A stretch of DNA of 64,000 bases from NCBI GenBank assembly GCA_045657425.1, contig JAZOTA010000004.1:13908-77907 (forward strand), given 5' to 3'. How positions within the stretch are numbered: position 1 is the first letter of the stretch; each line of letters starts with the position of its first letter. A program made the position numbers and the translations under genes. The notes beneath the pieces were generated by a model. The model saw nothing but the letters and a program-made list of their open reading frames with translations, was not told the DNA's origin and did no database searches. The DNA comes from Eubacteriales bacterium. GTDB lineage: Bacteria; Bacillota; Clostridia; Oscillospirales; CAG-382. Below, one piece after another: positions 20,373-55,727 of the stretch.

Positions 20373-20394
20373 TTTAAAAACACCTTTCAGTTAA

Positions 20395-21606: not shown

Positions 21607-21649
21607 AATCTGACCCTTTCTTTTTTATCTTTTCGAGATTCGGTTTTAA

Positions 21650-22045: not shown

Positions 22046-22107
22046 GATTAAATTCTCCTTATATTTTGAAAAAATTTACTTAGTTTTCAATTTTGTGTCG
22101 GTTATTT

Positions 22108-36530: not shown

Positions 36531-37195
36531 ATGAAATTTAAATATCTTTTGTTTGATCTCGACGGGACGTTGATAGATACCACCGAAGGTGTTTTAAAGT
36601 CTGCCCAAAATGCACTGAAAAGCTTTGGAATTTTCGTTGAAACCGAAAATCTAATGAACTTTTTTGGTCCGCCTTTACAGTATTCGTTTTCAACACTTTA
36701 CGGTCTGTCCGATGCAGATACCAATAAGGCAGTCGAAATTTATAACGAACGCTATAATAAATTCGGTATAGCGAATCACATATTTTCCCCGAGATCAAAG
36801 CACTTCTTCCTAAATTGAAAGAAGCCGGTTATATTCTCGGTGTTGCTACCTCAAAGCCGCAAGACCAAGCAATCGAAATGTTAAATTATCATTCCGTCTA
36901 CGATTATTTTGACTTTATATCCGGCGCAAGTGCAGACGGTAGCATTAGCAAAAAGGACGAGGTTATTAAGGAAGCATTAAGACACTTCAGAATCACCGAT
37001 GAGCTTGATAAGGTTCTTATGATCGGCGATATGAAATTTGATATTATAGGCGCAAAAAAATGCGGTATAGATTCTTTTGGAATCTATACCGGTACTGCTT
37101 GCACAGATGAGCTTGAAAACGAAGGCGCCAACTATGTAGCGTATAGTTTCGACGAGCTTGAAAACAAATTACTCGTTGATTTTTTGAACAATTAA
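36531..37195 (+). pseudogene. HAD-superfamily phosphatase (PGP/PpaX-like) interrupted by a -1 frameshift in a T4C4 run
   Basis: ORF 36531-36818 carries motif I (FDLDGTLIDT). The frame starting at 36761 carries the rest (GVATSK, GDMKFDI). The two frames join naturally around 36780-36791 (atattttcccc): ...NHIF|PEIKALLPKLKEAGY. Confidence 0.7.
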
Positions 37196-37698
37196 TCTTT
37201 GTTTTCTTGCAGTTCTTTTTTACTTAGGAATTTATCATTTCCAACATCGGTTATACGCGAAATAAACTCGGCATATTTTCGTTTTGTTGAACGTGTATTA
37301 TACAACAAAAGTATGCCAATGATAATAGATGCACCAAGCAAAACATTAACCGTTACCGGCGATTCTCCGCGATCGATAACAATATATCTAATATAAGCCA
37401 ACAATGCTATTATCAACGCAATTGCAATATAGTCAATAACAGATTTTGCAAAAATCCCGCTTATCTCGCTTCCCTTTTCGGTTTTTGCAATTTTGCCGTA
37501 AAAAACACAAGAAAACGGTTCACGCTTTGAACGTGCTCGGCGAACAAGCCGCACCTTATCGTCTTTACGTTTGGAAACGTAAATCAGATCCATAACGTCG
37601 TCAGAGCCCGCAAAACGCGCAGGCGATGTAAATTCATCCCAACGACTTGTCAATTCTTCTTTAGAAAAACAGCTGTTAAATTTATGCACAATTAACAC
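37192..37698 (-). CDS. Hypothetical two-TM membrane protein
   Basis: 168-aa ORF with a GTG start beside GAGGTG. Hydrophobic segments IDYIAIALIIALLAYIRYIVI and VNVLLGASIIIGILLLY. No recognisable family. Confidence 0.4.
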   Translation of the reverse strand: MLIVHKFNSCFSKEELTSRWDEFTSPARFAGSDDVMDLIYVSKRKDDKVRLVRRARSKREPFSCVFYGKIAKTEKGSEISGIFAKSVIDYIAIALIIALLAYIRYIVIDRGESPVTVNVLLGASIIIGILLLYNTRSTKRKYAEFISRITDVGNDKFLSKKELQENKD

Positions 37699-37777
37699 CT
37701 CTGAATTTTTATAGTTGAATTATAACACACGCACAAACGCAAGTCAATCGCATATTTTTCGGAAAGGGGGAGAATGT

Positions 37778-38605
37778 ATGCATCGATTAATCAAAGGAAT
37801 CAAGTACTTTGGACGCAAAATTTCTGCAAGCAGAATCAGCGCATATTCGGCACAAACCGCCTACTTTATGTTCCTCTCTCTCATTCCGCTTATAATGCTA
37901 CTGCTATCGTTATTGCAATTACTCGGTGATACAGGCGAAACGGTCACACAAACGATCAGCGAGGTTATGCCCGGTGTATTGGGCGAATTCATTAACGACT
38001 TTATAAACGAAATAATGTCCGACGGAAGGTTAACACTCACGATCGTCTCTGCAGCGTTGTTACTATGGTCGGCATCGCGCGGAGTCTTCTCGATAATCGG
38101 CGGTTTAAACTCGGTTTACGAGATAAAAGAAACAAGAAAATATCTTTGGGTGCGTTTTCTTTCAATAGTTTATACTCTGGCTTTTATAGTCATTGTTTGC
38201 GGTGTTCTGCTTATTATTGTCTTCGGTGACACGCTTATTAATCTTTCGAACTCTTTTTTCCCAAACCTAAAGGGATTGGTTTATATCATCGCTTCCCTTC
38301 GCTTCATTTTGGGATTCATAATATTGGTTTTGTTTTTCTCAATCATATACAAGAGTATGCCTTGCAAAAAGATGAAATTTGTCGACCAAATTCCGGGCGC
38401 CGTTATTTCGGGTGCAGGTTGGGTTTCGTTTTCGATTCTCTTCTCTTTCTACGTTGACAATTTCAGCAACTACGCTAACGTTTACGGCTCGTTGACCGCC
38501 ATTATCGTTTTAATGCTTTGGCTGTATACCTGTATGTATATAATGTTCATCGGTGCAGAAATCAACTGCATTCTGTCTTCAAAGGTCAACAATCAAAAGA
38601 AATAA
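37778..38605 (+). CDS. YihY/BrkB-family membrane protein
   Basis: SAYSAQTAYFMFLSLIPLIMLL and the ending YGSLTAIIVLMLWLYTCMYIMFIGAEIN are YihY hallmarks. Start at MHRLIKG (37778) after GGGGGAG. Confidence 0.75.
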   Translation: MHRLIKGIKYFGRKISASRISAYSAQTAYFMFLSLIPLIMLLLSLLQLLGDTGETVTQTISEVMPGVLGEFINDFINEIMSDGRLTLTIVSAALLLWSASRGVFSIIGGLNSVYEIKETRKYLWVRFLSIVYTLAFIVIVCGVLLIIVFGDTLINLSNSFFPNLKGLVYIIASLRFILGFIILVLFFSIIYKSMPCKKMKFVDQIPGAVISGAGWVSFSILFSFYVDNFSNYANVYGSLTAIIVLMLWLYTCMYIMFIGAEINCILSSKVNNQKK

Positions 38606-38656
38606 GACAACTGACGTTTTGACATTTACACTTTTATAAATTCAAGAGGATTAATT

Positions 38657-40069
38657 ATGATTTTTGCAGATTTGTTTTTTATGTTTGCATTCTTACCTTT
38701 ATGCTTTTTGTTCTACTTTATGTTCAAAAGCTTAAAGGCAAAAAACTGGGTACTTATCGTATTCTCGCTGGTCTTTTATGCGTGCGGTGAACCGATTAAG
38801 ATTTTGTTGTTTGTCAGCAGTGCGGCAATTAACTATTTCCTCGCATTATGGATGGACAAGGCGCGCGGAACCAAATATTGCAAAATGGCAATGTCACTTT
38901 CGCTCATCTACAACATAGGTATGCTTGGTTTATTTAAATACACCGATTTCATTATCGGAAACATAAACGGCATTTTCGGCTCTTCTATTCCGCTTCTCAA
39001 GCTCGCACTGCCTCTTGGCATTAGCTTCTACACATTCCAGATTATGTCCTATATGATCGACGTATATTGGGAAAAAGTTCCGGTTCAGAAGCATTTCAAC
39101 AAATTATTGTTATACATTTCCCTCTTCCCGCAATTGGTTGCAGGCCCGATCGTGCGTTACCAAACAATTGCCGATGAAATCGATAACCGTACAACCACTT
39201 TAAAAGACGTTATCGAAGGCGGCTTGCGTATCATCGTCGGTCTTTCCAAAAAGGTTCTTTTGGCTAACAATTTGAACCTGATTGTTGCAAAGTGCTTTGG
39301 CGAAAACGTTTCCGAGGCGTCAGTTGCCGCAACTTGGTTTGGCGTTATCGCTTATTCGATGCAGGTTTATTTCGACTTCTCCGGTTATTCGGATATGGCA
39401 ATCGGTATCGGCAGAATATTCGGCTTCCACTTTGACGAAAACTTCAAGCACCCCTTTATGTGCCGTTCTATTTCGGAATTCTGGCAAAGATGGCATATTT
39501 CGCTTGGCAGTTTCTTCCGCGACTACCTCTTGTATCTACCGATTTTTGGCAAAAGACGTGCAGTTTTGTCGTTGTTCCTCGTTTGGTTTACCACAGGTCT
39601 TTGGCACGGCGCAAGCTGGAACTATGTAATTTGGGGACTTTATTTCGGTGTATTCATCTTCATCGAAACGTTAATAGGCAAAAAGCGTCTTAAAAATGCG
39701 CCTACTGCATTAATGCACATATACAACAAGCTCGTAATACTTATCGGCTTCGGTATCTTCAAGTTTGAAAACTCAAGCGACCTTATCAACTTCTTCAAAA
39801 ATCTCGTAGGCGCTAACGGCAACATTCTGTATAACGATGACTTTTTCACGGTAGTTACTACCAACGTCTTTATATTCTCAATCGCGCTTATCGCTTGCTT
39901 CCCAATCATCCCTTATCTCAGAAAACGACTTGAAAACTCAAGCCCAATTGTTTATTCGATTGGCTTGATAACCGCAACTATTTTGGCGATTCTCCTCTTG
40001 TTTATCAACACAAGCGTTCTTGTCAAAACCTTCAGCAGTAACAATCCTTTCCTTTATTGGAACTTTTAG
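38657..40069 (+). CDS. MBOAT-family membrane O-acyltransferase (DltB/AlgI/PatA-like) ending in a DltX-like aromatic hexapeptide
   Basis: 470-aa polytopic protein. Catalytic-His context SEFWQRWHISLGSFFRDYLLY. The extreme C-terminus is PFLYWNF. Confidence 0.9.
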   Translation: MIFADLFFMFAFLPLCFLFYFMFKSLKAKNWVLIVFSLVFYACGEPIKILLFVSSAAINYFLALWMDKARGTKYCKMAMSLSLIYNIGMLGLFKYTDFIIGNINGIFGSSIPLLKLALPLGISFYTFQIMSYMIDVYWEKVPVQKHFNKLLLYISLFPQLVAGPIVRYQTIADEIDNRTTTLKDVIEGGLRIIVGLSKKVLLANNLNLIVAKCFGENVSEASVAATWFGVIAYSMQVYFDFSGYSDMAIGIGRIFGFHFDENFKHPFMCRSISEFWQRWHISLGSFFRDYLLYLPIFGKRRAVLSLFLVWFTTGLWHGASWNYVIWGLYFGVFIFIETLIGKKRLKNAPTALMHIYNKLVILIGFGIFKFENSSDLINFFKNLVGANGNILYNDDFFTVVTTNVFIFSIALIACFPIIPYLRKRLENSSPIVYSIGLITATILAILLLFINTSVLVKTFSSNNPFLYWNF

Positions 40070-40079
40070 GTGATAAAAT

Positions 40080-41501
40080 ATGAAAAATTTCACTATCAAA
40101 TTATGCGCTATTCTTTTAGCGCTGACACTTTTGTTCATGTTCGTCTTTTGCGTATTTCTTCCGCGCGAAACCGAATCCAACTACACAACATTAAAGGAAT
40201 GGCCCGAATTTTCCTTTGAAGATCTGTTTTCGGGCAAGTATTTTAAAGGCATCAGCGACTACTTTTCCGATACTATTTACGGTCGCGATACATTTGTAGA
40301 CTTTGAAACAAAGATCAACGGTCTTTACGGCTTGGAGGAAGAAGAAAAAATCATTACACTCAAGCCCGATGAATCCGTTCCCGACCAGGAACAGTCAGTT
40401 TCAGATGAAACATCTACCGAAACAGAAAGCTCGCAGATAGAAAGCAGTGATAGCTCCGATTATTCCTCGGAAGCACCCGAAAGCAGCTTTACCCCCGACG
40501 AATCCGAACCCGAAATCGAATCACAACCCGAAGAGTCGAAGCCCGAACAAGGCGGCGGACTTGCTGAAATTTCCGGTTCAATCCTTATTATCGGCAACCG
40601 TGCTATGGAAATTTACTACGGAAATCAAAATGGCGCGCTCCGTTACGCAAATATTCTGAACAATTTTGCCGAAAAGCTTGACCCCTCGGTTAACGTTTAC
40701 TCTATGGTAATTCCCAAATCAAGCGCTTATTATATCGGTCAAGCATCTCAACAAAAGTATCAAAAGCTTGCCGGCTGTAACAAGAACGATATCGATACCA
40801 TTTCCAACACACTTTCTGACAAGGTAATCGACGTAAACATTTACGACATTCTCGGTCGCCACGCAAATGAAGAGATCTACGCACGCACCGACCACCACTG
40901 GACCGCTTTGGGCGCATATTACGCATCCAGCGTTTTCGCTCAAAAAGCAGGTGTTGCGTTTGACGATATCTCAAACTTTGAAGAGGTAAGAAGACCCGGT
41001 TACCTCGGAACCTATTACTACGTATTTTCATCCAAAGACAACAACGCTGTACTTCAAAACAACCCGGAAGATTTTCTCTCGTTTATTCCCGATACCAAAT
41101 ATACCGTCGAATATTACTCGTCGAGCGGTTTTTCAAACGGCGCAATCAATGAAAGCAAACTTAGTGCACACAACGGCTTTTTCTTTGAAATTTCCGATAA
41201 AAAGATCGGCAGCTGGTATTCAACCTTCATTTTGGGTGATACCTATTGTGTTAAAGCAAAATCCGAAGAATGCAAAAACGGCAGAAAGCTTCTTATCATC
41301 AAGGATAGCTACGGCAACGCGCTCGCACCGTTTATGATTGAAGGATTCGAAGAAGTTTATGTTGTTGACGGCAGAAAATACGCCAAGAACTTAAAAGAAA
41401 CCATTAATGAATTCGGCATTACCGACGTCTTGTTTGCAGAAGTTACCTTCTCTGCAGTGGGCAAGGATTATTTAAACGCACTTGAGGAGATTTGTAAATA
41501 A
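40080..41501 (+). CDS. DHHW-family (AlgJ/AlgX/DltD-like SGNH) extracytoplasmic acyltransferase, N-terminal TM anchor
   Basis: TM LCAILLALTLLFMFVFCVFL, then a Ser/Glu/Pro-rich acidic linker. Motifs: YARTDHHWTALGAYYAS and IIKDSYGNALAPF. Confidence 0.8.
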   Translation: MKNFTIKLCAILLALTLLFMFVFCVFLPRETESNYTTLKEWPEFSFEDLFSGKYFKGISDYFSDTIYGRDTFVDFETKINGLYGLEEEEKIITLKPDESVPDQEQSVSDETSTETESSQIESSDSSDYSSEAPESSFTPDESEPEIESQPEESKPEQGGGLAEISGSILIIGNRAMEIYYGNQNGALRYANILNNFAEKLDPSVNVYSMVIPKSSAYYIGQASQQKYQKLAGCNKNDIDTISNTLSDKVIDVNIYDILGRHANEEIYARTDHHWTALGAYYASSVFAQKAGVAFDDISNFEEVRRPGYLGTYYYVFSSKDNNAVLQNNPEDFLSFIPDTKYTVEYYSSSGFSNGAINESKLSAHNGFFFEISDKKIGSWYSTFILGDTYCVKAKSEECKNGRKLLIIKDSYGNALAPFMIEGFEEVYVVDGRKYAKNLKETINEFGITDVLFAEVTFSAVGKDYLNALEEICK

Positions 41502-41503
41502 CC

Positions 41504-42928
41504 ATGAAAAAATTAGCACTTTTGCTTCTTCCTATTTTACTCTGTATAATTCTTATCGCTTGTGATACTGGGACCGAAAACGTTTCGAGTATTTCCGATA
41601 TTTCCGAAGCCGAAAGCTCAAACGGAAACGAATCAGACGTTTCGATAACCGAAACCTCGGAAGATAGCACAGGCACCGATAATAACAGTTCCGCAACCGA
41701 AGAGAGCTCCGAACCGACCGAAAGCAGCAATGTCGAACCTGCTACTATTCAAAAAGAGCTTGATGTTACTGTAACTGTTCACGGTACCACCGCCCTTGGA
41801 AATGCAGGCCTTTCGGTTAAATCCGGTTATTCAAAGAACCAAAAAATTACTGTTGAAGGTGAAAAAGACCTCATCGACTCTTTGGATGCTTCTAAAATCA
41901 GTGCCGAGATTGATGTATCCGGTACATCTACTATGGGAACCTTTGATTTTTTGATTATCTACAAAGTACCCGAAAACGTTAAAATCGTAAGCACCTCTGC
42001 AGAATATCTTTCTTTGGAAATTGTTAAAAAGCCCGAAGAAACCGTTACTCCGCCCAGCAATACTGCGTATATCACCAACGGCATAATAATCGCCGGTAAC
42101 AGAGGTATGGAGCAGTTCGGCGGCACTGTAGCAAGTGGCGAAAAGACTGCGCAAAAGCTTAATGAATTCAAAAAAGCAGTCGGCGCAGATATAAACGTTT
42201 ATATTATGGCTTGCCCTTCGGCAGGAGCCTTTTATGCACCCGAAAAATACCCTAACAACATCAAAAATCACATTAACTGCTTTAACGGCATCAAAGACAA
42301 TCTTGTAGACGTTAAATTTGTTGATACTTTAACTGCATTGGGCGCTCACACGGACGAATACATCTATCTCCGCACCGACTTCCACTGGAGCGGTTTGGGC
42401 GCTTATTATGCCGCAAAGGAACTTGCGAAGGTTGCAGGTACTCCTTTTGACGACATCTCTACTTATACCGAACACAGTGTTGACGGACTTAAAGGCAGTC
42501 TTGTTAGTTATGCACCCGTTCTGGCTAATTATCCCGACACCTTATATTGGTACGTTCCCAGCCGTCAGCATACAGTTACGTACTACAGTGCAACAAACTT
42601 TAAGAATCCCATTACCGGAAGAACCTTGTTTTCAAACAACAACGGATACTCAAAGTTCATCTACGGCGACTCGTATACCACTCACATTCAGTCTGACGTG
42701 AACAACGGAAGAAAACTCCTTATTTTCAAGGATAGCTACGGAAATGCGCTCGCACCTTACGTACTTTCCTCTTTTGAAGAAGTTTATATAGCAGATTACC
42801 GAAAATTCACTCTCAACGCACTCGAGTTCATTGAGGAACACGACATTACAGACGTTTGCTTTGCAATGTCCGCTTTTGCGACATCCGGCAGCAAACGCGA
42901 TTATATTACAAAACTTCTGAAATATTAA
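41504..42928 (+). CDS. Second DHHW-family acyltransferase: lipoprotein with an inserted YbbR-like domain (motif variant DFHW)
   Basis: Lipobox IILIAC and an acidic S/E linker. YbbR-like segment ITVEGEKDLIDSLDASKISAEIDVSG. Motifs: YLRTDFHWSGLGAYYAA and IFKDSYGNALAPY. Confidence 0.75.
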   Translation: MKKLALLLLPILLCIILIACDTGTENVSSISDISEAESSNGNESDVSITETSEDSTGTDNNSSATEESSEPTESSNVEPATIQKELDVTVTVHGTTALGNAGLSVKSGYSKNQKITVEGEKDLIDSLDASKISAEIDVSGTSTMGTFDFLIIYKVPENVKIVSTSAEYLSLEIVKKPEETVTPPSNTAYITNGIIIAGNRGMEQFGGTVASGEKTAQKLNEFKKAVGADINVYIMACPSAGAFYAPEKYPNNIKNHINCFNGIKDNLVDVKFVDTLTALGAHTDEYIYLRTDFHWSGLGAYYAAKELAKVAGTPFDDISTYTEHSVDGLKGSLVSYAPVLANYPDTLYWYVPSRQHTVTYYSATNFKNPITGRTLFSNNNGYSKFIYGDSYTTHIQSDVNNGRKLLIFKDSYGNALAPYVLSSFEEVYIADYRKFTLNALEFIEEHDITDVCFAMSAFATSGSKRDYITKLLKY

Positions 42929-42938
42929 GGAGAATATT

Positions 42939-44726
42939 ATGCCTGTAACTGCATATCCCTTTGATATTGATGCGCTTACCGACCATCGCAAAAGAACAAG
43001 ACGTGAGCTTATAAACGATGGCAGCAAACGCATAAAAAAGAAAATTGCCGTTTTAGGCGGATCCACAACCAACGATTTTATCAAGACCTTGGAGGTGTTT
43101 TTGCTTTCCGAAGGTATTGAGCCTGAATTTTACGAATCCGAATATAACCGTTTCTGGCAGGATGCGATGTTCGAAAATCCCGAGCTTTCGGAGTTTGCTC
43201 CGGACATCATCTATGTTCACACAAGCTATAGAAATATTGCTTCGTTTTTACCCGAAACGACCGATTCTGCCGAAGAAATTGAGTCCAAGATTAACGAGCG
43301 ATATTCCTATTACGAAAAAATGTGGAACCGCTTGGCAAGCGTATATTCCTGCCCGATAATTCAAAACAATTTCGAGCTTCCGCCTTACCGCCTTTTCGGT
43401 AACCGCGATTGCTATGATATTCACGGTGCAGTCAACTTTATAACCCGTTTGAATTTGCGTTTTGCTGAATATGCTCAGCAAAACCAGGGCTTTTACATTT
43501 GCGATATCAATTATATTGCTTCCTGCTTCGGTCTTGACAAATGGTTTGATGACCAAGCGTGGTATATGTATAAATATGCCTGCTCGCTTGATGCAGTTCC
43601 TTACGTCACAAAGAACCTTTCAAATATTATCAAATCTATCTTTGGCAAAAATAAAAAGGTTTTAGCGCTCGACCTCGACAACACCCTTTGGGGCGGCGTC
43701 GTTGGCGATGACGGAGTTGAAGGAATTGAAATCGGCGAAGAAACTGCCACCTCGGAATGTTACAAAGCATTTCAGGAATACGTTAAAAAACAAAAAAGCA
43801 TCGGTATTATGTTGACTGTTGCTTCGAAAAACGACCACGAAAACGCAATCGCAGGCCTTAATCACCCCGAGGGTGTGCTTCGCCCCGATGACTTTATCGT
43901 CATTAAAGCAAATTGGGAAACCAAGGACAGAAACCTTGTTGCAACAGCGAGCGAAATGGACCTCGGCATCGATTCCTTCGTCTTTGCGGACGATAACCCC
44001 ACCGAGCGCGCGCTTGTTGAACGCAGCATTAAAGGCATCGCTATTCCTGTATTCGACGTGCCCGCCGATTATATTCGCACCATCGACAGAAACGGATATT
44101 TCGAGGTTACCAACTTTTCCGCAGACGACTTGAAGCGTAACGATATGTATAAGGCAAACGTCAAGCGCGCTGAGCTTTCAACAGAGTTTGCGGACTACAC
44201 CGAATATCTGTTGAGCTTGGATATGAGAGGCGAAATCAAACCGTTTTCTCCCGTTTTTATGCAACGCATTACCCAATTGACCAACAAATCCAACCAGTTT
44301 AACCTTACAACTAAACGTTACACTCAACCCGAAATCGAATCGGTCGCAAACGACGGCAAGCACATTACCCTTTATGGTAAGCTTTCCGACACCTTTGGTG
44401 ATAACGGCGTTGTTTCGGTTGTTATTGGTCAAATCAAGGACAATATTTGCGATATAGACCTTTGGCTTATGAGCTGCCGTGTTCTTAAAAAGAATATGGA
44501 ATATGCAATGCTTGATACTCTTGTAAAAGAGTGCAAAGATAGGTCTATTGACACGATAATAGGTCACTACTACCCCACCGCAAAGAACGGAATGGTCAAA
44601 AACCTCTTTAATGATTTCGGTTTCGAAAAAACATTTGAAGGCGAAGACGGCACGACCGAATGGAAGCTTTCGCTTACCGATTATCAAAACAAAAACAACG
44701 TAATTAAAGTTAATCTGGAGGAATAA
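42939..44726 (+). CDS. FkbH-like HAD-IIIC family protein (predicted acyl/glyceryl loader for the adjacent ACP)
   Basis: HAD motif I in KVLALDLDNTLWGGVVGDDGVEGIEIG. The C-terminal GNAT-like part carries the FkbH-type cysteine motif DLWLMSCRVLKKNME. Confidence 0.8.
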   Translation: MPVTAYPFDIDALTDHRKRTRRELINDGSKRIKKKIAVLGGSTTNDFIKTLEVFLLSEGIEPEFYESEYNRFWQDAMFENPELSEFAPDIIYVHTSYRNIASFLPETTDSAEEIESKINERYSYYEKMWNRLASVYSCPIIQNNFELPPYRLFGNRDCYDIHGAVNFITRLNLRFAEYAQQNQGFYICDINYIASCFGLDKWFDDQAWYMYKYACSLDAVPYVTKNLSNIIKSIFGKNKKVLALDLDNTLWGGVVGDDGVEGIEIGEETATSECYKAFQEYVKKQKSIGIMLTVASKNDHENAIAGLNHPEGVLRPDDFIVIKANWETKDRNLVATASEMDLGIDSFVFADDNPTERALVERSIKGIAIPVFDVPADYIRTIDRNGYFEVTNFSADDLKRNDMYKANVKRAELSTEFADYTEYLLSLDMRGEIKPFSPVFMQRITQLTNKSNQFNLTTKRYTQPEIESVANDGKHITLYGKLSDTFGDNGVVSVVIGQIKDNICDIDLWLMSCRVLKKNMEYAMLDTLVKECKDRSIDTIIGHYYPTAKNGMVKNLFNDFGFEKTFEGEDGTTEWKLSLTDYQNKNNVIKVNLEE

Positions 44727-44729
44727 ATT

Positions 44730-44966
44730 ATGGCACAAAATATTAACGAAAGACTTAACGAAGTATTCCAAAACGTTTTTGATGACGAAGACATCACCGT
44801 TGATCGCGAAACTACCGCTGACGATATTGAAGATTGGGACAGTCTTGAGCACATTCGTCTTATCGCGGCTGTTGAACGTGAATTCGGTATGAAATTCACC
44901 ATGAAAGAAGTCAGCGCAATGAAAAACGTTGGCGAAATGATGGACATCATCGCTGAAAGAGCATAA
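44730..44966 (+). CDS. Acyl carrier protein (discrete, DltC-like role predicted)
   Basis: 78 aa and acidic, with phosphopantetheine-attachment context DIEDWDSLEHIRLIAAVEREFG. Starts 3 nt after the FkbH-like stop. Confidence 0.85.
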   Translation: MAQNINERLNEVFQNVFDDEDITVDRETTADDIEDWDSLEHIRLIAAVEREFGMKFTMKEVSAMKNVGEMMDIIAERA

Positions 44967-44988
44967 CCAAAACCGATAAACAATAACT

Positions 44989-45026
44989 AAAGAGGAATTG
45001 TTCATATACGAGCAATTCCTCTTTTT
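44989..45026 (+). terminator. Rho-independent terminator closing the MBOAT-ACP operon
   Basis: aaagaggaattg-(12 nt loop)-caattcctcttt followed by tt. Confidence 0.8.
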
Positions 45027-45128
45027 AAATAACAGCTGTGATATGCTTTATAAAATTCCCGATGAATGCAAAGAAGAAAACACAAGAGCAAAGACGCGAA
45101 ATTCGTAGCTTAAAATAATATTTACAAA

Positions 45129-45164
45129 AATCCCGTGCATACCAATTGTGATATGCACGGGATT
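45129..45164 (-). terminator. Terminator of typA
   Basis: Minus strand reads aatcccgtgcat-(loop)-atgcacgggatt followed by tttgtaaa. Confidence 0.7.
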
Positions 45165-45177
45165 AATTGTTATTACA

Positions 45178-47022
45178 CTATTTTTCTGCAGCCGCTTTCT
45201 TTGCTCTGCTTTCCGCTTTCATTCTTAATTCTTTATTAAGAATACGCTTGCGGATACGGATCGATTGAGGCGTTACCTCGATAAGCTCGTCATCTGCAAT
45301 AAATTCAATCGCTTCTTCAAGCGACATAATGATAGGCGGAGTGAGAATAAGCTTTTCATCGGCACCTGCGGAACGAATTGCGGTAAGCTGCTTTTTCTTG
45401 CAGGGATTAATCGCCATATCTTCACCCTTGGGGTTAATACCAACGACCATACCTTCATATACATTCATACCGGGGCCTACGAACAAATTACCGCGGTCTT
45501 GCGAGTTATAGCAACCGTAAGAGGTTGTTTCGCCATCTTCACTTGCAATAAGCGAACCGGTAAAGCGAATCTGAATATCGCCTTTAAAGGGCTTGTATCC
45601 TTCAAAAATGGAGTTAAGAATACCTTCGCCGCGAGTGGCGGACATAAACATATTTCTGTAACCGATAAGGCAACGCGCGGGAATCGAATATTCGATCTTC
45701 ATACGAGTGCCGTTACCGTTAGGGTTCATTTGAAGAAGATCGCCTTTACGTCTGCTCAGCTCTTCAACAACAGTACCAACATAATCATTGGGAACGTCAG
45801 CAGTAACAAGCTCAAAGGGCTCACACTTAACGCCGTCAATCTCTTTAAAGAGAACGCGCGGAGTCGAACAGCAAAGCTCAAAACCTTCACGGCGCATATT
45901 TTCAACAAGAATCGAAAGGTGCATTTCGCCACGACCTGCAACGTTAAAGCAATCGGTAGTGTCACCTTCGTTTACACGAAGTGAAACGTCCTTCAAAAGC
46001 TCCTTGAATAATCTGTCGCGTAATTGACGCGAGGTTACAAACTTACCTTCTCTACCTGCAAACGGAGAATCATTAACCGAGAAGGTCATTTCCATTGTAG
46101 GTTCGCCAACCTTAACAAATTCCAAAGGTTCGGGACAAGTAACGGACGTAATGGTATCACCAATAGTAATATCTTCAGCACCCGAGAAGCACACGATGTC
46201 GCCCATATTAGCGGTTTGAACGGGTACACGGTTAAGACCGTCGATCTGATAAAGCGAAACAATTTTCGTTTTCTTAGGTGTAGCACCGGAGTGATAGTTG
46301 GTAATAAATACCTCCTGTCCCTGCTTGATAGAACCGCGTTCGATTCTACCGATACCTATACGACCTACATATTCATTATAGTCGATTGAAGAAACGAGCA
46401 ATTGCAATTCACCGTCAGGATCACCTTCGGGTGCAGGAATATGAGAAAGAATGGTTTCGAAAAGGGGTTGGAGATCCTTACCCGCTTCATAGGGAGAAAG
46501 CGAAGCAGTGCCGGCTCTTCCGGAACAGAACAGCGTGGGGCTTTCGAGCTGTTCATCGCTTGCGTCGAGGTCAAAAAGAAGCTCGAGAACTTCATCCATA
46601 ACCTCTTCGATTCTTGCATCGGCGCGGTCGATTTTATTGATAACAACGATAACCTTATGGTTAAGCTCGAGCGCTCTTTGCAAAACGAATCTGGTTTGAG
46701 GCATAGGTCCTTCAGCCGCATCGACCAAAAGGATAACACCGTTTACCATTTTAAGAATACGCTCAACCTCGCCTCCGAAATCGGCGTGTCCCGGGGTGTC
46801 GATAACGTTAATTTTAACGTCTTTATAGTGGATGGCAGTGTTTTTTGCGAGAATGGTAATACCGCGCTCGCGCTCGAGAGCGTTATTATCCATAACGCGA
46901 TCCTCGGTAACCTGATTTTCGCGGAATACGCCGCCTTGCTTAAGCATTTCGTCAACAAGAGTAGTTTTGCCGTGGTCAACGTGAGCGATAATTGCGATAT
47001 TTCTTAAATCTTCTCTAACCAT
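45178..47022 (-). CDS. typA: Translational GTPase TypA/BipA
   Basis: [36 protein letters not shown], and 614 aa with the BipA-specific C-terminal domain. Confidence 0.95.
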
Positions 47023-47202: not shown

Positions 47203-48564
47203 TTGAACATAACTAAGCTTAATAATAAATCAAAGCTTTATTTCCTCGGTATCGGCGGCATAAGCATGTCTGCGATAGCAATGATACTTAAGGGAAACGG
47301 GTTTTCAATTTCCGGATATGACAGGACGCTCGGCGACGTTACCGACAAGCTCGAAAATAACGGCATAAAGGTCTATTCCGAGTTTGATATCTCTCAGATT
47401 AATGGCTGTGATGCGATAGTTTATTCCGCAGCATTCGGCACAGATCACCCGATATATCAGGCGGTATCACAAACCGGCATTGAGCTTTATTCCCGTGCAG
47501 AGATTTTGGGGGCTATCGCAAACCTTTACAAAAACTCGATCGCTGTTGCCGGCACTCATGGTAAATCGACAACGAGCGGTATGCTCGGTCACGTGCTTTT
47601 AAACGCGACCGCTTGCGACCCCACTGTTGTGGTCGGTGCGGTTATGCGTGACGTCGGATCTACATACAGAGTCGGCAAGGATGATAACTTTGTTTTCGAG
47701 GCTTGCGAATACAAGGACAGTTTTCTTTCGTTTTTCCCGAAGATCGCGGTCGTGCTTAACGTTGCGCTTGATCATACAGATTATTTCAGTGGAATCGGTC
47801 ATATGCGCGAATCGTTCATTCAATTTATGAACAACGGCGGTAGCGAGGGCTATGCTGTTTATAACTACGACTGCGAAAACTGCAGAATTTGCGCCGAACA
47901 GCATATCGGTACAAATATTACTTTTAGCGCAAACGGCGATATTAATGCAGATTATTGTGCAAAGAACGTTGAAATAATATCCGGCTTTGCTTCATTCGAC
48001 GTTTACAAAAACAGAGAATTTTACATTTCGCTCAAGCTTTCTGCGCCCGGCGAGCACAACATTTCCAATTCTCTTGCTGTAGTCGCTTGTTGTGACCTTA
48101 TCGGCATTGCAAAAGAAGATATCGTTAAAGGCATCGTAAGCTTTGCAGGCGTAGGCAGACGCTTCGAATACAAGGGCAGCTTTTGCGGTGCAGACGTTTA
48201 TGACGATTACGCGCACCATCCCGATGAAATCAAGGTTACCTTGAACGCTGCAAAGGGAATTGCTCGCGGTAAGGTCGTTGCGGTATTCCAGCCTCATAAT
48301 TATTCGCGTCTTCGCGATCTGTTTGATGAATTCAAGACGTCGTTTGACGATGCGGATATACTTATTCTCTGCCCTCTTTATGCGGCAAGAGAGGCATGCG
48401 GAACCGAGGTTTCTTCGGAATTGCTTTCGAAAGAAATTTCACATTCTTTTTATTTCGAAACGTTTGATGATATAAAAGAGCACTTAAAAAAGATTCTCAA
48501 TCCCGGCGATTTACTCCTTATAATGGGCGCAGGCGACATTGCGAAGCTTGCAAACAGCATTTGA
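47203..48564 (+). CDS. murC: UDP-N-acetylmuramate--L-alanine ligase
   Basis: YFLGIGGISMSAIA, the Mur ligase P-loop VAGTHGKSTT, and YAHHPDEI. Apparent TTG start. Confidence 0.9.
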   Translation: MNITKLNNKSKLYFLGIGGISMSAIAMILKGNGFSISGYDRTLGDVTDKLENNGIKVYSEFDISQINGCDAIVYSAAFGTDHPIYQAVSQTGIELYSRAEILGAIANLYKNSIAVAGTHGKSTTSGMLGHVLLNATACDPTVVVGAVMRDVGSTYRVGKDDNFVFEACEYKDSFLSFFPKIAVVLNVALDHTDYFSGIGHMRESFIQFMNNGGSEGYAVYNYDCENCRICAEQHIGTNITFSANGDINADYCAKNVEIISGFASFDVYKNREFYISLKLSAPGEHNISNSLAVVACCDLIGIAKEDIVKGIVSFAGVGRRFEYKGSFCGADVYDDYAHHPDEIKVTLNAAKGIARGKVVAVFQPHNYSRLRDLFDEFKTSFDDADILILCPLYAAREACGTEVSSELLSKEISHSFYFETFDDIKEHLKKILNPGDLLLIMGAGDIAKLANSI

Positions 48565-49640: not shown

Positions 49641-49669
49641 TTGACATATTCATCGAAAAGTAGTATAAT
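49641..49669 (+). promoter_or_regulatory. Sigma-A promoter of the 845-aa lipoprotein gene
   Basis: TTGACA (49641-49646), a 17-nt spacer, then TATAAT (49664-49669). The track's ORF start at 49641 is actually the -35 box. Confidence 0.6.
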
Positions 49670-49712
49670 GCGCTTATGTGTAAATATCTGTTTTTTAGGA
49701 GGAACGCCTACT

Positions 49713-52247
49713 ATGAAAAAAGGCATCTTATGTATTCTTCTGTCAATTCTTATGCTTGTTCCGATGTTCGCATCCTGTTCAAGCGAAGTAGTTATCGAAG
49801 ATATTGAAGCCAAAGTTTATACTCTCTACACTATCAAAGATAAAGAAACGACACCTGAAGCCATCAGACAGGTTGAACTTGCGCTTAACCGCATTTTGTT
49901 CCACCGTTTGGGCGTCATCCTCAAGCTTGTTATGGTTGATGAGGAGGAATATGATCAGCTCATTACCGACAAGTATGCTGAAATGGAAGAATATCAGCTT
50001 GCAAAGAAAAACAAGAACAACAAGGATGAATCCTCTAAAGCCGATAGTTCCGACGAAGAGGTTTCTGTCGACGTTCTTACCGGTGATGATATTCTCGACA
50101 TCCTCGAAGAGGGCGGACAAATTCCCCTCGAAGAGCCCAGACTTGATATTTTCCTTGTAAGAGGATACGACAAGTATTACGACCTTGCTACAAACGGAAA
50201 GCTTGTTTCTCTCGACGAAAAGCTTAACAACGAAGGTAAATCGCTCAAGTCTTCTATTCACTCTACTTTGTTCACAGCTGCAAAGGTTGGTTTGAAGACA
50301 TACGGCGTTCCCGTTAACAACGCAATCGGCGAATACACTTATCTCGTATATGATGCTGAACTTTTGGCTCAGCACAATATCGACCCTAACACTCTTACTA
50401 CGTTGGAAGACCTTCGCGATTATCTCGAAATCGTTGCTAAAAACAATCCCGACGTAGTTCCTTTGAAGAACATTAAGGAATCGACCGCGTTCAACTTCCT
50501 TAGCACTCCCGGCTTCCCTGCACTCGTTCAATTGACCGACCTTGGAACCCGTCGTGTAATCAACGCATATAAAGATTCTCAATTCAAAGATTATTATGCA
50601 ATGATCGCAAGATATCAGGCGCTTGGCTATATTTCTGATGATTTTGCATCTGCTGCAGAAACCGATGATGTTCCCAGATACGCAGTTCGTTTTGAAAGCG
50701 GTACTATCGACTCCATCACCAAGAATCTCCAGAAGGAGTATGGTAAGGAACAGAAGTTTGAATTTACCGAATTTTCTCCTCCTATCGCTACAAATGAAAA
50801 TACAATTGATAATATTTTCTGCGTATCCGAATTTGTATCTTCTACCGACGAACTTACCGACGTAATCGAAATCATGGAAGCTATCAACACCGATGCTCAA
50901 CTTATGAACATCCTCACCTACGGTGTTGAAAACGTACACTACCAACTCGATGATGACGGCTTTGTTGTTAGAAAAGAAGACAGCGTTCAAATCACTAATC
51001 CCGAAAACCCCGATGAAAAGATCGTAGTTAAGAATGTTTATATTGTAGACCCCAACCACGTTGGTAACTGCTTTATCACCCACATTCTTAAGGATACCGA
51101 ACACGATACAACAAACGCAAACCTTTGGATCGACGCTATTAAGCAAAACCAAGATGCAATCGTTTCACCCTCGCTTGGTTTCACCTCCAACCCCAAGAAA
51201 TTCTCTTACAAGGTTACAGTTGAAATTGACGATCCCAAGAACCCCGGACAAAAGATCCAGCAGGAAGATACCGTTGATATTTACGAACCCGATTACATCG
51301 AGGTTATCAACGAAGTTATAGCTAAGCACTACCCCGCCCTCCTTTCCGGTACCGCTGTAGAGATTAATTATGAAGAGATCTACACAAAAGCAGAAGCGGA
51401 AATCGTCGCAGATTTCGTTGACAGAGTTGACGAACAATTCGAAGAAAACGTTCTTAAACCTATGTTCGCAGAAATGATGCGCGAAGAAGTAACAAAAAAT
51501 CAAAGCAAACAGATTCGCGAAGAAGCTGAAGCGGTTGTTAGAGAAGACCTTCACGACGACGTTAGAAAGAAGCTTAAGAATAAGCTCACCTCTAAGTTGA
51601 AGGCAGAAAATCCTGAAGCAAGCAGCTCTGATATTTCCAAGATGGTAAATGAACTGCTTACCGAAGAGTATATTAATGAAAACTTCGCTTCCTACTACAG
51701 CGAAGAAGAAGTTCAAGACAAAATTGAAAGCACATTCATAAACTATCTTGATTCCGCAATCGATGATGCAATCGACGAAATCGAAGATACCGATGAATAT
51801 GCAAAAGCATTTGAAAATCTCCAAAACTCTGAAGAATATAAGAATCAACTCAACCTTATGTTGACTTATGACGCTCCCAACAAGATTCTCGCACGTGTAG
51901 ACGAATATATTGCTGAGGAAATTGCAGTATATACCGATAACATCATTGCAGAAATCGAAACCGCTATCGAAGCAGCTGTTAACAAATTTGTTGAGGAAAA
52001 TTCTGAAATTCTTAATCTTACCGCAGAACAGATTTATTTAGAAATCGGTTACTACGAAGAAGAAAAGGTTGAAACCGAAGGCGAAGAAGCTGATGCAGCA
52101 ACAGAAGAAAGCGCAGCTGAAGGTGAAGAAGGCGAAGAAGAGAAGAAGTTAGTACCTAAGTACGAAACTTGGTTCGACTTTGTGTTCACCGAAAAGATCC
52201 AAAACACCTACTATCAAATCTTCGGTGACCCCGACAAAGTAGCATAA
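49713..52247 (+). CDS. Lipoprotein: solute-binding-like domain followed by an approximately 300-aa highly acidic helical region and a short conserved C-terminal tail
   Basis: Start MKKGILCILLSILMLVPMFASC (lipobox) after AGGAGG. SBP-like N-terminal two-thirds. The C-terminal third is Glu/Asp-rich with heptad-like spacing and ends WFDFVFTEKIQNTYYQIFG. Confidence 0.5.
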   Translation: MKKGILCILLSILMLVPMFASCSSEVVIEDIEAKVYTLYTIKDKETTPEAIRQVELALNRILFHRLGVILKLVMVDEEEYDQLITDKYAEMEEYQLAKKNKNNKDESSKADSSDEEVSVDVLTGDDILDILEEGGQIPLEEPRLDIFLVRGYDKYYDLATNGKLVSLDEKLNNEGKSLKSSIHSTLFTAAKVGLKTYGVPVNNAIGEYTYLVYDAELLAQHNIDPNTLTTLEDLRDYLEIVAKNNPDVVPLKNIKESTAFNFLSTPGFPALVQLTDLGTRRVINAYKDSQFKDYYAMIARYQALGYISDDFASAAETDDVPRYAVRFESGTIDSITKNLQKEYGKEQKFEFTEFSPPIATNENTIDNIFCVSEFVSSTDELTDVIEIMEAINTDAQLMNILTYGVENVHYQLDDDGFVVRKEDSVQITNPENPDEKIVVKNVYIVDPNHVGNCFITHILKDTEHDTTNANLWIDAIKQNQDAIVSPSLGFTSNPKKFSYKVTVEIDDPKNPGQKIQQEDTVDIYEPDYIEVINEVIAKHYPALLSGTAVEINYEEIYTKAEAEIVADFVDRVDEQFEENVLKPMFAEMMREEVTKNQSKQIREEAEAVVREDLHDDVRKKLKNKLTSKLKAENPEASSSDISKMVNELLTEEYINENFASYYSEEEVQDKIESTFINYLDSAIDDAIDEIEDTDEYAKAFENLQNSEEYKNQLNLMLTYDAPNKILARVDEYIAEEIAVYTDNIIAEIETAIEAAVNKFVEENSEILNLTAEQIYLEIGYYEEEKVETEGEEADAATEESAAEGEEGEEEKKLVPKYETWFDFVFTEKIQNTYYQIFGDPDKVA

Positions 52248-53532: not shown

Positions 53533-54726
53533 TTATGCAGTGTAGTTATCGAAATATCCTTGAATCCAAACGATGGGAGTACCCTTATCACCGCTGCCCG
53601 AGGTAAGGTCGCAAAGCGAACCGATGAGGTCGGTAAGTCTGCGAGGAGTAGTGCCTTGAGAAGCCATTTTACCTACAAGGTCGCCATCCTTTTTACGAAT
53701 GTATTCACTGATAGCATCCTTGAGTTCTTGGCCGGAAAGATGCTTGAAATCGTTATCTGCAAGATACTTGAGCTTTACTTCGTTGGGTTGACCTTCAAGG
53801 CCGGGAGTGTATGCAGGGGAAACAACAGGGTCAGCAAGCTCCCAAATCTTTCCTACAGGGTCCTTAAAGGCACCATCGCCATAAACCATTACTTCAACAT
53901 TCTTGCCGGTCTTTTCGTTAAGCATAGAAGCGATAGAATCAACAACCGCTTGGCAATCACGCGGGAAAAGCTTAACGGTATCTTCGGTAGCCTTGTTGCT
54001 TCCGAGAAGGCCGTATTCGCGGTTAAAGCCCGAGCCGTTGACAGACTCGGTAAGAATATCGTCAAGACCGAAAACTGTTTTCGCGCCTGCCGCTTTAAGA
54101 AGGCGTTTGCTTCTGACGCGGGTGTGAATATCGCAGGTAAGAACCGAATCGGTATAATCAAGAATCTTGCGGCAATCGTTAGCAAGAACGATCTCGACTT
54201 CGCAATCCTGAGATTCGATAAGTTCACGGTAATATTCGATATAATCAACACCGGTAAAGGGGTGCTTTACGATGCCGAAAAGCTCGCGATATTTTGCTTC
54301 GGTAAGAACGTCGGTCCAAGGATTAACGCCTGCGGCATCCAAGGAATCGTAATCGATCAAGTGGTTGCCAACTTCATCCGAGGGATAGGAAAGCATAAGC
54401 ACAACCTTCTTTGCGCCGCGTGCGATACCTTTAAGGCAGATAGCAAAACGATTACGCGAAAGAATGGGGAAAATTACACCAACAGCGCCTTCGGGGAATT
54501 TAGCACGAATATCGTCAGCAATCTGGTCAACGGAAGCATAGTTACCCTGTGCGCGAGCAACAACCGCTTCGGTAACCGCAACAACGTCACGGTCGAGAAT
54601 TTGAATGTTTTCACTTTCAGCCGCAGTAAGAACGCTTTCTGCAACAATTTTAGCTATATCATCACCCTGTCTGATAATAGGAGCGCGCACTCCTCGGGAC
54701 ACGGTACCAATGAATCTTTCGTTCAT
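53533..54726 (-). CDS. F420-0:gamma-glutamyl ligase (CofE)-like domain protein with a C-terminal extension; function unknown here
   Basis: N-terminal half (RAPIIRQGDDIAKIVAESVL...VVAVTEAVVARAQGN...) resembles the CofE/F420-ligase fold family. Assignment made by eye only. Confidence 0.45.
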   Translation of the reverse strand: MNERFIGTVSRGVRAPIIRQGDDIAKIVAESVLTAAESENIQILDRDVVAVTEAVVARAQGNYASVDQIADDIRAKFPEGAVGVIFPILSRNRFAICLKGIARGAKKVVLMLSYPSDEVGNHLIDYDSLDAAGVNPWTDVLTEAKYRELFGIVKHPFTGVDYIEYYRELIESQDCEVEIVLANDCRKILDYTDSVLTCDIHTRVRSKRLLKAAGAKTVFGLDDILTESVNGSGFNREYGLLGSNKATEDTVKLFPRDCQAVVDSIASMLNEKTGKNVEVMVYGDGAFKDPVGKIWELADPVVSPAYTPGLEGQPNEVKLKYLADNDFKHLSGQELKDAISEYIRKKDGDLVGKMASQGTTPRRLTDLIGSLCDLTSGSGDKGTPIVWIQGYFDNYTA

Positions 54727-54830
54727 TTTAAAACCTCCAAAAACATATTGACATTTCTGTATTTATATTATAATATAAATCATATCATAAGTCAATCAAT
54801 TAATCATAATGCTTTGCATAAGGAGAGCTT

Positions 54831-55727
54831 ATGGATATTAAGTTAGATCAATATAAGATATTTTACGAGGCGGCAATTTGCGGAAGCTTTTCCGAAGCTG
54901 CAAAAAAATTGTTTATCACACAAAGCGCAATCAGTCAACAGATACGTTCTTTAGAAAATGAGCTTGGCGTTATGCTTTTTGCAAGAGGTCGCAAGGGCGC
55001 AAAGCTTACCGCTCAAGGCGATTTACTTTTCGGCTACGTTAAGCGCGCTATAGAAGAAATACAAAACGCGGAGGCACTTTTTACAAGGATGAAAACTCTT
55101 GATGAGGGCAATTTAAGAATAGGAGCAGGCGATACTATTACCAGACATTTTTTGATGGATGCGCTTGAACTGTTTCATAACACTTACCCTTCAATTAAAA
55201 TCGAAATTGTAAATCGTGTTACTAACGAAACGCTCAGCCGATTAATAGCCGGTAAGATCGACGTTGCTTTCGTAAGTTTACCGATTGACAATAACAAATA
55301 TCCGGCCGTTGATATTAAAGAAATAGGCACGCTGCATGAAGCGTTTATTGCCGGCAGTAAATATAGGCATTTACTTGATCAAACGCTGTCAATAAACGAC
55401 ATCGCTTCCCTTCCGCTTGCGATGCTTGAACCAAAATCCAACACCCGATACAATACCGATATGTTTTTTCAATCGCACGGTTTGAAATTAAATCCCGAAT
55501 TCGAGTTAGGATCTTATGATTTACTATTTGATTTTGCAGAGAAAAATCTAGGCATAGCTTGTATTACCGAAGAGTTTTCCAATAACGTAAAATACAAAAA
55601 TATATTCAGACTAAAAACTGATTTCTCAATGCCAGAAAGAAGCATCGGCATTTGTACGTTGGCAAACGTTCCGCCTTCTCCCGCAGTTTGCAGATTAATC
55701 GAAATAATTGAAAGCATATCCAAATAA
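54831..55727 (+). CDS. LysR-family transcriptional regulator
   Basis: LDQYKIFYEAAICGSFSEAAKKLFITQSAISQQIRSLENELGVMLFAR, the LysR HTH, plus a substrate-binding domain. Divergent from the CofE-like gene. Confidence 0.9.
   Translation: MDIKLDQYKIFYEAAICGSFSEAAKKLFITQSAISQQIRSLENELGVMLFARGRKGAKLTAQGDLLFGYVKRAIEEIQNAEALFTRMKTLDEGNLRIGAGDTITRHFLMDALELFHNTYPSIKIEIVNRVTNETLSRLIAGKIDVAFVSLPIDNNKYPAVDIKEIGTLHEAFIAGSKYRHLLDQTLSINDIASLPLAMLEPKSNTRYNTDMFFQSHGLKLNPEFELGSYDLLFDFAEKNLGIACITEEFSNNVKYKNIFRLKTDFSMPERSIGICTLANVPPSPAVCRLIEIIESISK

Follow-up and report, generated by a model that had tools for sequence, protein, structure and literature searches.

Genes at the locus

The subject of this report is a group of five co-directional genes at 38657-44966 (+) in a 64,000-nt stretch of contig JAZOTA010000004.1 from a Eubacteriales bacterium (the window). 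The genes run in the order MBOAT-DHHW-DHHW-FkbH-like-ACP (acyl carrier protein; Table 1), and the gaps between them, from the MBOAT gene onward, are only 10, 2, 10 and 3 nt. A first-pass annotation of the window had described the last two genes as an FkbH-like/ACP pair lying outside any polyketide or polysaccharide-synthesis context, and was silent on the two DHHW/AlgX-like SGNH genes between the MBOAT and FkbH-like genes. These two DHHW genes are the key to the locus. An MBOAT with two DHHW proteins amounts to envelope-polysaccharide acylation machinery of the PatA1/PatB1 type (PMC9487903, PMC12148441), so the polysaccharide part of that description was misleading. With these three genes beside the FkbH-like/ACP pair, the locus therefore reads as an MBOAT/SGNH envelope-acylation system that has a carrier-protein loading arm. 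The arrangement suggests a previously undescribed Dlt-like pathway that places small hydroxy-acid esters on the cell wall.

The FkbH-like and ACP genes are indeed 3 nt apart, as had been noted. The junction reads GGAGGAA-TAA-att-ATG, with the stop codon at 44724-44726, three bases, and then the ATG at 44730, and a GGAGGA ribosome-binding site lies inside the 3' end of the FkbH-like gene. The operon is closed by a terminator-like hairpin whose 3' arm ends in UUU and is followed by UU; beyond it lies a convergent typA/bipA gene. A scan of 37000-45400 for promoter and terminator consensus sequences gave counts that were not above those in shuffled sequence, and it did not report the hairpin after the ACP gene.

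The surroundings of the operon were surveyed with a Pfam scan of all 57 non-overlapping open reading frames (ORFs) of at least 90 aa in the window, to which an NCBIfam scan was added for 10 ORFs with no Pfam match (9 outside the operon and 1 adjoining it). No ketosynthase (KS), acyltransferase (AT), KASIII, glycosyltransferase or acyl-CoA dehydrogenase was detected in the 64 kb, nor was any FkbG-type O-methyltransferase, FkbI or FkbK. There is likewise no FabH-like tetronate synthase or consumer of the polyketide synthase (PKS) type in the window, whereas the Streptomyces and B. cereus loci discussed below do carry such consumers. Neither the operon nor the window scans contain an AMP-binding domain of the kind found in a DltA-type adenylating ligase. 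The earlier list of absent genes thus stands for KS, AT, glycosyltransferase and FkbG-type O-methyltransferase genes, but it was wrong for dehydrogenases: a single short-chain dehydrogenase/reductase (SDR) gene is present at 26188-27027 (-) and lies about 16 kb away in a group of sugar-acid genes. Two methyltransferases (one KsgA-like, the other matching Methyltransf_4) are also encoded in the window, and none of these three genes can plausibly be linked to the operon.

The FkbH-like protein and the ACP

The FkbH-like protein scores 257.9 bits on the FkbH domain model TIGR01686 (cut-off 146.65) over residues 239-563, and 60.9 bits on the HAD-IIIC model TIGR01681 (cut-off 35.75). Its parts are FkbH_N (residues 35-232 or so), a phosphatase domain of the HAD-IIIC type (about 240-395) and an acyl-transfer domain with a GNAT fold that holds C513. 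Its homologues include ZmaN, from a plasmid-borne zwittermicin cluster of B. cereus, and proteins of S. meliloti and E. tayi. When the four are aligned, D245/D247/T249, S296-K297-N298, K329 and D351-D352 are invariant, as is S512-C513-R514-V515, the SCRV motif with its active-site Cys. The two strings quoted in the first-pass annotation, IAVLGGSTTNDF and SCRV, are present at G40-T44 and S512-V515, and none of the catalytic Asp and Cys residues is missing on proper alignment, which had been left as a possibility.

FkbH-like enzymes have been proposed, or assigned, to convert 1,3-bisphosphoglycerate to glyceryl-S-ACP (PMC7489565; PMC13122637). Judged by its sequence, the window protein genuinely belongs to the FkbH domain family and is predicted to have this activity. 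Its identity to PKS-associated FkbH homologues is 25-28%.

In the PDB, the FkbH_N and HAD part of the protein matches 3SLR (BF1531) at 2.3e-51. An AlphaFold model of the whole protein (mean predicted local distance difference test score, pLDDT, 71) retrieves 3SLR with Foldseek over the N-terminal and HAD parts, and the C-terminal domain with C513 matches GNAT acetyltransferases. When the N-terminal domain is modelled alone (pLDDT 78; predicted template modelling score, pTM, 0.80), the best match is again 3SLR, followed by GDSL/SGNH esterases.

The N-terminal domain had been put forward as a possible determinant of substrate choice. It is the Pfam domain FkbH_N (PF21211), with a fold that the model predicts to be SGNH-like, and its GGSTT sequence falls at the position of the block-I GDS motif. 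FkbH_N is absent from ZmaN, and it is present in a 645-aa Streptomyces homologue encoded beside a ketosynthase, KASIII, an ACP and a phosphopantetheinyl transferase. Because this homologue of the PKS/tetronate type has the domain too, FkbH_N is not peculiar to the locus; long FkbH-like proteins regularly carry it, and the notion of a locus-specific substrate selector was rejected. Within the domain (window 42939-43643, residues 1-235), relatives of 54-82% identity all retain Ser42 in GGSTT, H94, N143/N144 and D189. From its modelled fold, FkbH_N is perhaps a working esterase or thioesterase, with a proofreading role for example, or perhaps only a scaffold.

The phosphopantetheine serine of the ACP is S38, in WDSLEH, and D37-S38 is invariant in the ACPs that adjoin FkbH-like genes in five other loci. 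With NCBIfam, the protein has weak AcpP-type matches only, and no DltC model is listed.

The MBOAT and the two DHHW proteins

In the Dlt pathway, which D-alanylates teichoic acids, DltB moves D-alanine from the carrier protein DltC to the tyrosine of an FxYxxF motif on the microprotein DltX, from where it goes to the SGNH protein DltD; in PatA and other MBOAT/SGNH systems, the FxYxxF motif is instead fused to the MBOAT's C-terminal end (PMC12148441). The window MBOAT is of the fused kind. Its last six residues are F465-L-Y467-W-N-F470, so that the acyl-shuttle motif is on the MBOAT itself and not on a separate DltX-type microprotein (ORFs shorter than 60 aa were not searched for one). The protein scores 149 bits on the DltB model TIGR04091, under the cut-off of 375, and it is matched by the DltB structures 6BUG/8JEM at about 7e-23, with the conserved histidines of WHISL (H280) and LWHG (H317) aligned.

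MBOAT/SGNH pathways other than Dlt have been said to "lack a similar carrier protein" (PMC12148441, a 2025 paper in JBC), and PatA-type MBOATs with the fused motif auto-acetylate from acetyl-CoA with no need of a carrier protein (PMC12148441). The window MBOAT combines the PatA-type fused shuttle with a carrier protein and a loader in one operon.

DHHW proteins are a subfamily of the SGNH hydrolases typified by PatB1 of B. cereus, where PatA1 and PatB1 O-acetylate the secondary cell-wall polysaccharide (PMC9487903); acetylation of clostridial cellulose by an MBOAT/DHHW pair has also been proposed (PMC7710045). In the first DHHW protein of the operon there is a membrane anchor at the N-terminus as well as an acidic linker rich in Ser and Glu. 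In the PDB this protein matches 4NZK, an unpublished structure from [Eubacterium] siraeum, at 3.9e-60 and PatB1 itself (5V8D) at 1.6e-8, and its predicted catalytic residues are present (D271/H273, S410 and D430/R432). The second begins with a lipoprotein-type signal (the lipobox, ...LIAC, was read from the sequence), has a YbbR-like domain, and gives additional Pfam matches to ALGX (2.4e-8) and YbbR (1.2e-5). Here the corresponding residues are D292/H294 (in a DFHW variant of the DHHW block), S411 and D431/R433. In both proteins the spacing of 20 residues from the Ser to the Asp of the D-x-R oxyanion block equals that of PatB1 (S337/D357/R359).

Conservation of the module in related loci

The FkbH-like family comprises 13,773 clusters at 50% identity (E < 1e-3), and 5,063 at E <= 1e-30. 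Relatives with both search motifs occur in at least 580 species-level genomes, and the best named matches are from uncultured Clostridia and Oscillospiraceae. The synteny analysis covered the 80 top-ranked genome loci, with 53-67% identity, drawn from Oscillospiraceae, Lachnospiraceae, Ruminococcus, Christensenellaceae, Bacilli, Synergistales and others; 46 of them have at least 5 kb on both sides. These loci share ancestry, so that the counts overstate their independence. An ACP homologue is found no more than 4 kb downstream of the FkbH-like gene in 76 of the 80 loci. Among the 46 full-flank loci, 44 have the ACP gene and 35 have a same-strand MBOAT gene within 8 kb, where chance would be expected to account for a few per cent by a rough estimate, inferred rather than computed. 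The C-terminal residues are FxYxx[F/I] in all but one of the 63 MBOATs from these neighborhoods.

The gene order takes at least three forms, and the fourth partner varies (Table 1). The Eisenbergiella tayi locus includes GT2, DUF6056 and GDSL genes as neighbors. On pSymB of S. meliloti, a proteobacterium, the module contains a 409-aa protein, annotated "TonB-dependent receptor", which has no Pfam or PDB match. A recombinase gene and insertion sequence elements adjoin this module, suggesting that it is a mobile or strain-variable island.

The FkbH-ACP-MBOAT triad is kept in two phyla, with different or absent SGNH partners. Because it persists despite the shuffled order and the changing accessory genes, the triad appears to be a functional unit. 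The first-pass annotation had named the MBOAT as the only plausible consumer of the acyl-ACP, and this proposal is backed, short of proof, by the occurrence of the triad in three orders across Clostridia and on pSymB of S. meliloti, and by the absence of a PKS-type consumer from the window.

Table 1. Features of the operon region, with gene orders and accessory genes of related loci (L numbers denote related loci; positions without an accession or locus are those of the window)
Feature	Position or locus	Strand	Remarks
YihY/BrkB-family membrane protein	37715-38605	+	Pfam PF03631 at 7e-58; co-directional, 51 nt upstream of the MBOAT gene
MBOAT, 470 aa	38657-40069	+	Pfam MBOAT at 1.2e-23
DHHW-family SGNH-like transferase 1, 473 aa	40080-41501	+	Pfam DHHW at 8.5e-62
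DHHW-family SGNH-like transferase 2, 474 aa	41504-42928	+	Pfam DHHW at 1.8e-28
FkbH-like enzyme, 595 aa	42939-44726	+	TIGR01686, PF21211
Acyl carrier protein, 78 aa	44730-44966	+	Pfam PP-binding at 1.4e-4
Terminator-like hairpin closing the operon	44989-45024	+	15-bp stem, -20.7 kcal/mol, z = -7.8 against shuffles
Order A, MBOAT-DHHW(-DHHW)-FkbH-ACP			Window type
Order B1, FkbH-ACP-(MaoC dehydratase or VOC protein)-(SDR)-MBOAT-anchored protein			Anchored protein of about 355-430 aa, no Pfam family match
Order B2, FkbH-ACP-MBOAT-HAD			
Order B3, FkbH-transketolase N-transketolase C-MaoC-ACP-MBOAT			
Order C, among GT2, GtrA-like, GT-C-like and GDSL genes	Eisenbergiella tayi DSM 26961		
MBOAT-409-aa protein-ACP-FkbH-like	L085, S. 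meliloti pSymB, CP140921.1 1050793-1055827		MBOAT ends in FLYQGF
MaoC and SDR tailoring genes	L009, L019, L031, L040, L061, L064		
Transketolase N and C genes	L018, L037, L065, L077, L078		Most with MaoC
VOC/glyoxalase genes	L012, L057, L059, L066-L068, L074		
c5 family, examples	L070:13525-14592, L018:13407-14696		

The accessory genes of the related loci include several for tailoring enzymes. Those that adjoin the ACP gene could convert glyceryl-ACP to other hydroxy-acyl-ACPs, for example to lactyl-ACP via dehydration and reduction. Because the genes inserted in this way vary, the FkbH-ACP-MBOAT family probably delivers several small hydroxy-acyl groups; the window operon, having no tailoring gene, would deliver unmodified glyceryl. 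A radical SAM/SPASM gene is also found in several of these relatives.

Other variants of the module differ in the SGNH partner or lack an MBOAT gene nearby. A family designated c5 (21 members in 15 loci) consists of proteins of 355-430 aa with an N-terminal anchor, encoded 3' of the MBOAT gene where DHHW genes are missing. Neither Pfam, at family level, nor a PDB sequence search gives a match to the c5 proteins, apart from a weak GDSL_2 hit in one member (E = 0.007), and they may be a new SGNH-like partner. In three loci (L022, L047 and L071) the order is DHHW-DHHW-FkbH-ACP with no MBOAT gene within 8 kb, and the gene for the partner MBOAT may lie in another part of these genomes. In two others (L046 and L060) the FkbH-ACP pair lies beside NeuA/NeuB/NeuC-like genes, as read by eye, again with no MBOAT nearby, and L046 also has a MaoC dehydratase gene. 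This context hints at acylation of nonulosonic acids, and C. jejuni cj1302 may be comparable.

No description of an FkbH-ACP-MBOAT module was found in the literature, subscription-only papers being outside the scope of the search. FkbH and MBOAT are both mentioned in two aeruginosin/suomilide papers, in one of which (PMC13122637) they play unrelated roles.

A proposed pathway for envelope acylation

On balance, and with modest confidence, the five genes are read as a single operon whose products would acylate an envelope polymer outside the cytoplasm in four Dlt-like steps, with glyceryl-ACP feeding the MBOAT. In the first step, the cytoplasmic FkbH-like enzyme would start from a phosphorylated C3 acyl compound, with 1,3-bisphosphoglycerate as the likeliest donor. 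Its HAD domain would dephosphorylate the donor, Cys513 would hold the acyl group, and a D-glyceryl thioester would be loaded on the phosphopantetheine of the ACP; this step is proposed because of family membership and the conserved catalytic residues. Glyceryl-ACP would then dock on the MBOAT from the cytoplasmic side, in the way that DltC docks on DltB, a step suggested by the conserved synteny. In the third step, the MBOAT would pass the acyl group to its own Tyr467 (in FLYWNF) at the outer face, by a chemistry that follows the PatA and DltX precedents. Finally, one or both of the membrane-tethered DHHW transferases would accept the acyl group on S410 or S411 and esterify a hydroxyl of a wall glycopolymer, for example the secondary cell-wall polysaccharide, teichoic acid or peptidoglycan.

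Several observations weigh against this pathway. The acyl group, the hand-over from ACP to MBOAT and the acceptor are all inferred. The ACP fits general AcpP models and not DltC, and the MBOAT could use acetyl-CoA, since the PatA-type MBOATs with a fused motif do so. MBOAT genes are missing within 8 kb in 11 of the 46 full-flank relatives, and some FkbH-ACP pairs have nonulosonic-acid or housekeeping genes for neighbors, so the link between the pair and an MBOAT does not hold in every genome. The Pfam and NCBIfam scans revealed in the window no gene for making a wall polymer from which the acceptor could be guessed. Lastly, we know of no reported glycerate ester on a wall polymer of Clostridia, and none was found in the searchable literature either.

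Alternative explanations

One could instead suppose that the operon contains two independent systems, with the MBOAT and DHHW proteins acting as an acetyl-CoA-dependent O-acetyltransferase of the PatA1/PatB1 type and the FkbH-like/ACP pair serving an unrelated cytoplasmic acceptor, for example an N- or O-acylated nucleotide sugar or a lipid. The carrier-independent auto-acetylation of PatA-type MBOATs with a fused FxYxxF motif (PMC12148441) fits such a division of labor. DHHW/MBOAT pairs also occur with no FkbH gene, in B. cereus PatA1/PatB1 and in the clostridial ccs locus, and L073 has a second DHHW/MBOAT pair. Conversely, FkbH-ACP pairs are found beside the NeuA/B/C-like genes or with no MBOAT at all, including the 11 full-flank loci that are MBOAT-free nearby, and a flagellar glycosylation locus of C. 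jejuni contains an fkbH-domain gene, cj1302. Against this, the FkbH-ACP-MBOAT triad survives three gene orders, varied or absent SGNH partners and two phyla, a persistence that is hard to explain if the MBOAT is independent of the FkbH-ACP pair. In addition, the window operon offers no other cytoplasmic acyltransferase. Two separate systems are therefore considered unlikely, though this is the likeliest of the alternatives.

A second alternative keeps the architecture of the proposed pathway and changes only the acyl group, which might be phosphoglyceryl, glycolyl, lactyl or a group from some other acyl phosphate substrate. The identity of only 25-28% to the PKS-associated homologues leaves room for this, the tailoring enzymes of the related loci imply chemical diversity, and to our knowledge there is no residue known to determine substrate choice in FkbH proteins. 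However, the HAD and Cys motifs are invariant with those of ZmaN, arguing that the two enzymes share their phosphorylated substrate and their chemistry; FkbH-like enzymes are described as working from 1,3-bisphosphoglycerate (PMC7489565; PMC13122637); and the window operon has no tailoring gene. An acyl group other than glycerate is accordingly judged improbable, somewhat more so than two separate systems.

The last alternative, that the pair supplies glyceryl-ACP to a polyketide, tetronate or nonribosomal peptide synthetase (NRPS) pathway elsewhere in the genome, matches the PKS, NRPS or tetronate setting of the FkbH functions described in PMC7489565 and PMC13122637, but is very hard to sustain when the 64 kb contain no KS, AT, KASIII, FkbG, FkbI or FkbK, both PKS-linked homologues that were checked sit within their own clusters, and close relatives adjoin MBOAT genes in dozens of species.

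Relationship to known systems

The glyceryl-ACP pathway proposed here shares the logic of Dlt: a loader charges a carrier, an MBOAT relays the acyl group via the tyrosine of FxYxxF, and an SGNH protein delivers it to a wall polymer. In the window MBOAT, too, the conserved histidines line up with those of the DltB structures. The components differ. The loader is of the HAD/GNAT FkbH type whereas that of Dlt is the adenylating DltA, the carrier has no DltC model match and the MBOAT, at 149 bits, falls short of the 375 bits required for DltB. The MBOAT itself bears the shuttle motif that in Dlt belongs to the DltX microprotein, the SGNH partner is represented by two DHHW-type copies rather than by DltD, and the proposed acyl group is a hydroxy acid rather than D-alanine. 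From the sequence comparisons, then, the window system would be Dlt-like in working while not being a member of the Dlt family.

The membrane and extracytoplasmic parts are those of B. cereus PatA1/PatB1, namely an MBOAT with a fused FxYxxF motif and a DHHW/AlgX-type SGNH protein having D-x-H, Ser and D-x-R. PatA/PatB, AlgI/AlgJ/AlgX, WssH/WssI and CcsH/CcsI are grouped with PatA1/PatB1. This class is described as using acetyl-CoA and as carrier-free (PMC12148441), whereas the window operon encodes an ACP and a loader, and these are conserved with the MBOAT in many species.

The loading arm, in turn, resembles the glyceryl-ACP synthases FkbH, OzmB, ZmaN and Mad7/Mad14 of the methoxymalonyl-/hydroxymalonyl-ACP and tetronate pathways, which have the same FkbH domain, HAD aspartates and SCRV Cys and a stand-alone ACP encoded next door. 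Differences are the identity of only 25-28% and the neighbors: MBOAT and SGNH genes are found here, and the dehydrogenases, O-methyltransferase, FabH-like protein, KS and AT that accompany such synthases are missing from the operon's surroundings. The bryostatin loading module of BryA (dehydratase-ketoreductase-FkbH-ACP) has been proposed to turn a glyceryl group into a lactyl group. The related loci, and not the window, encode the same set of activities with a MaoC dehydratase and an SDR beside FkbH-ACP; there they are separate proteins, proposed to feed an MBOAT and not a PKS.

Uncharacterized FkbH-like proteins outside PKS contexts include Bacteroides fragilis BF1531 (PDB 3SLR) and Campylobacter jejuni cj1302. 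BF1531 has the FkbH_N and HAD part in common with the window protein (E = 2.3e-51), and the cj1302 gene lies within the flagellar glycosylation locus.

Implications

MBOAT/SGNH pathways set surface charge, lysozyme resistance, susceptibility to phages and antibiotics, and immune recognition. In the current picture there is one pathway fed by a carrier protein (Dlt, with D-alanine) and there are several fed by acetyl-CoA (PMC12148441). If the proposed pathway is correct, the FkbH-ACP-MBOAT module, which is widespread in gut Clostridia, contradicts the generalization that MBOAT/SGNH pathways other than Dlt are carrier-free. The new donor arm, from 1,3-bisphosphoglycerate via glyceryl-ACP to the MBOAT, would tap a central metabolite. 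The walls of abundant gut commensals would probably carry new, unrecognized ester substituents.

A broader claim can be offered only tentatively: the FkbH-ACP-MBOAT module might represent the second widespread class of carrier-protein-dependent transmembrane acylation after Dlt, one that adds ester-linked glycerate (or lactate- and glycolate-like groups where tailoring genes are present). Many gut and rumen Clostridia, and some Proteobacteria, would then decorate their envelopes in ways that are chemically undescribed, and the window MBOAT would be the first with a fused shuttle tyrosine to be fed by a protein thioester instead of an acyl-CoA. If the proposed pathway holds, FkbH-type enzymes would gain a primary role outside natural-product synthesis. 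This matters for genome mining, where an FkbH-ACP pair can readily be taken for a piece of a biosynthetic gene cluster.

Other features of the window

The YihY/BrkB gene just upstream of the operon was considered as a core component and rejected; it is probably not one, because L001, the closest of the related loci, is the only one with a detected homologue. Further upstream, a HAD_2-type phosphatase gene is split in two overlapping (+) ORFs, 36531-36818 (95 aa) and 36815-37195 (126 aa), reflecting a frameshift, a pseudogene or a sequencing error. L001 has an intact gene of 218 aa at this place, upstream of its operon.

A few window genes are related to the cell wall. A VCA0040-like (DUF368) protein, of a family that Pfam describes as undecaprenyl-phosphate translocase-like, is encoded at 12695-13414 (+), and there are two Mur-ligase-family genes (29400-30866 and 47203-48564) and one for diaminopimelate epimerase.

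Several ORFs have no Pfam or NCBIfam match. They include long ones of up to 868 aa at 23077-24561 (-), 24694-26163 (-) and 49641-52247 (+), and others at 1661-2947, 13499-14548, 53560-54846, 55763-56857 and 58512-59627. Finally, an operon of the Na+-translocating oxaloacetate decarboxylase (OAD) type is located at 18957-22806 (-), and has two consecutive biotin-carrier ORFs, one of which is fused to an OAD gamma domain.

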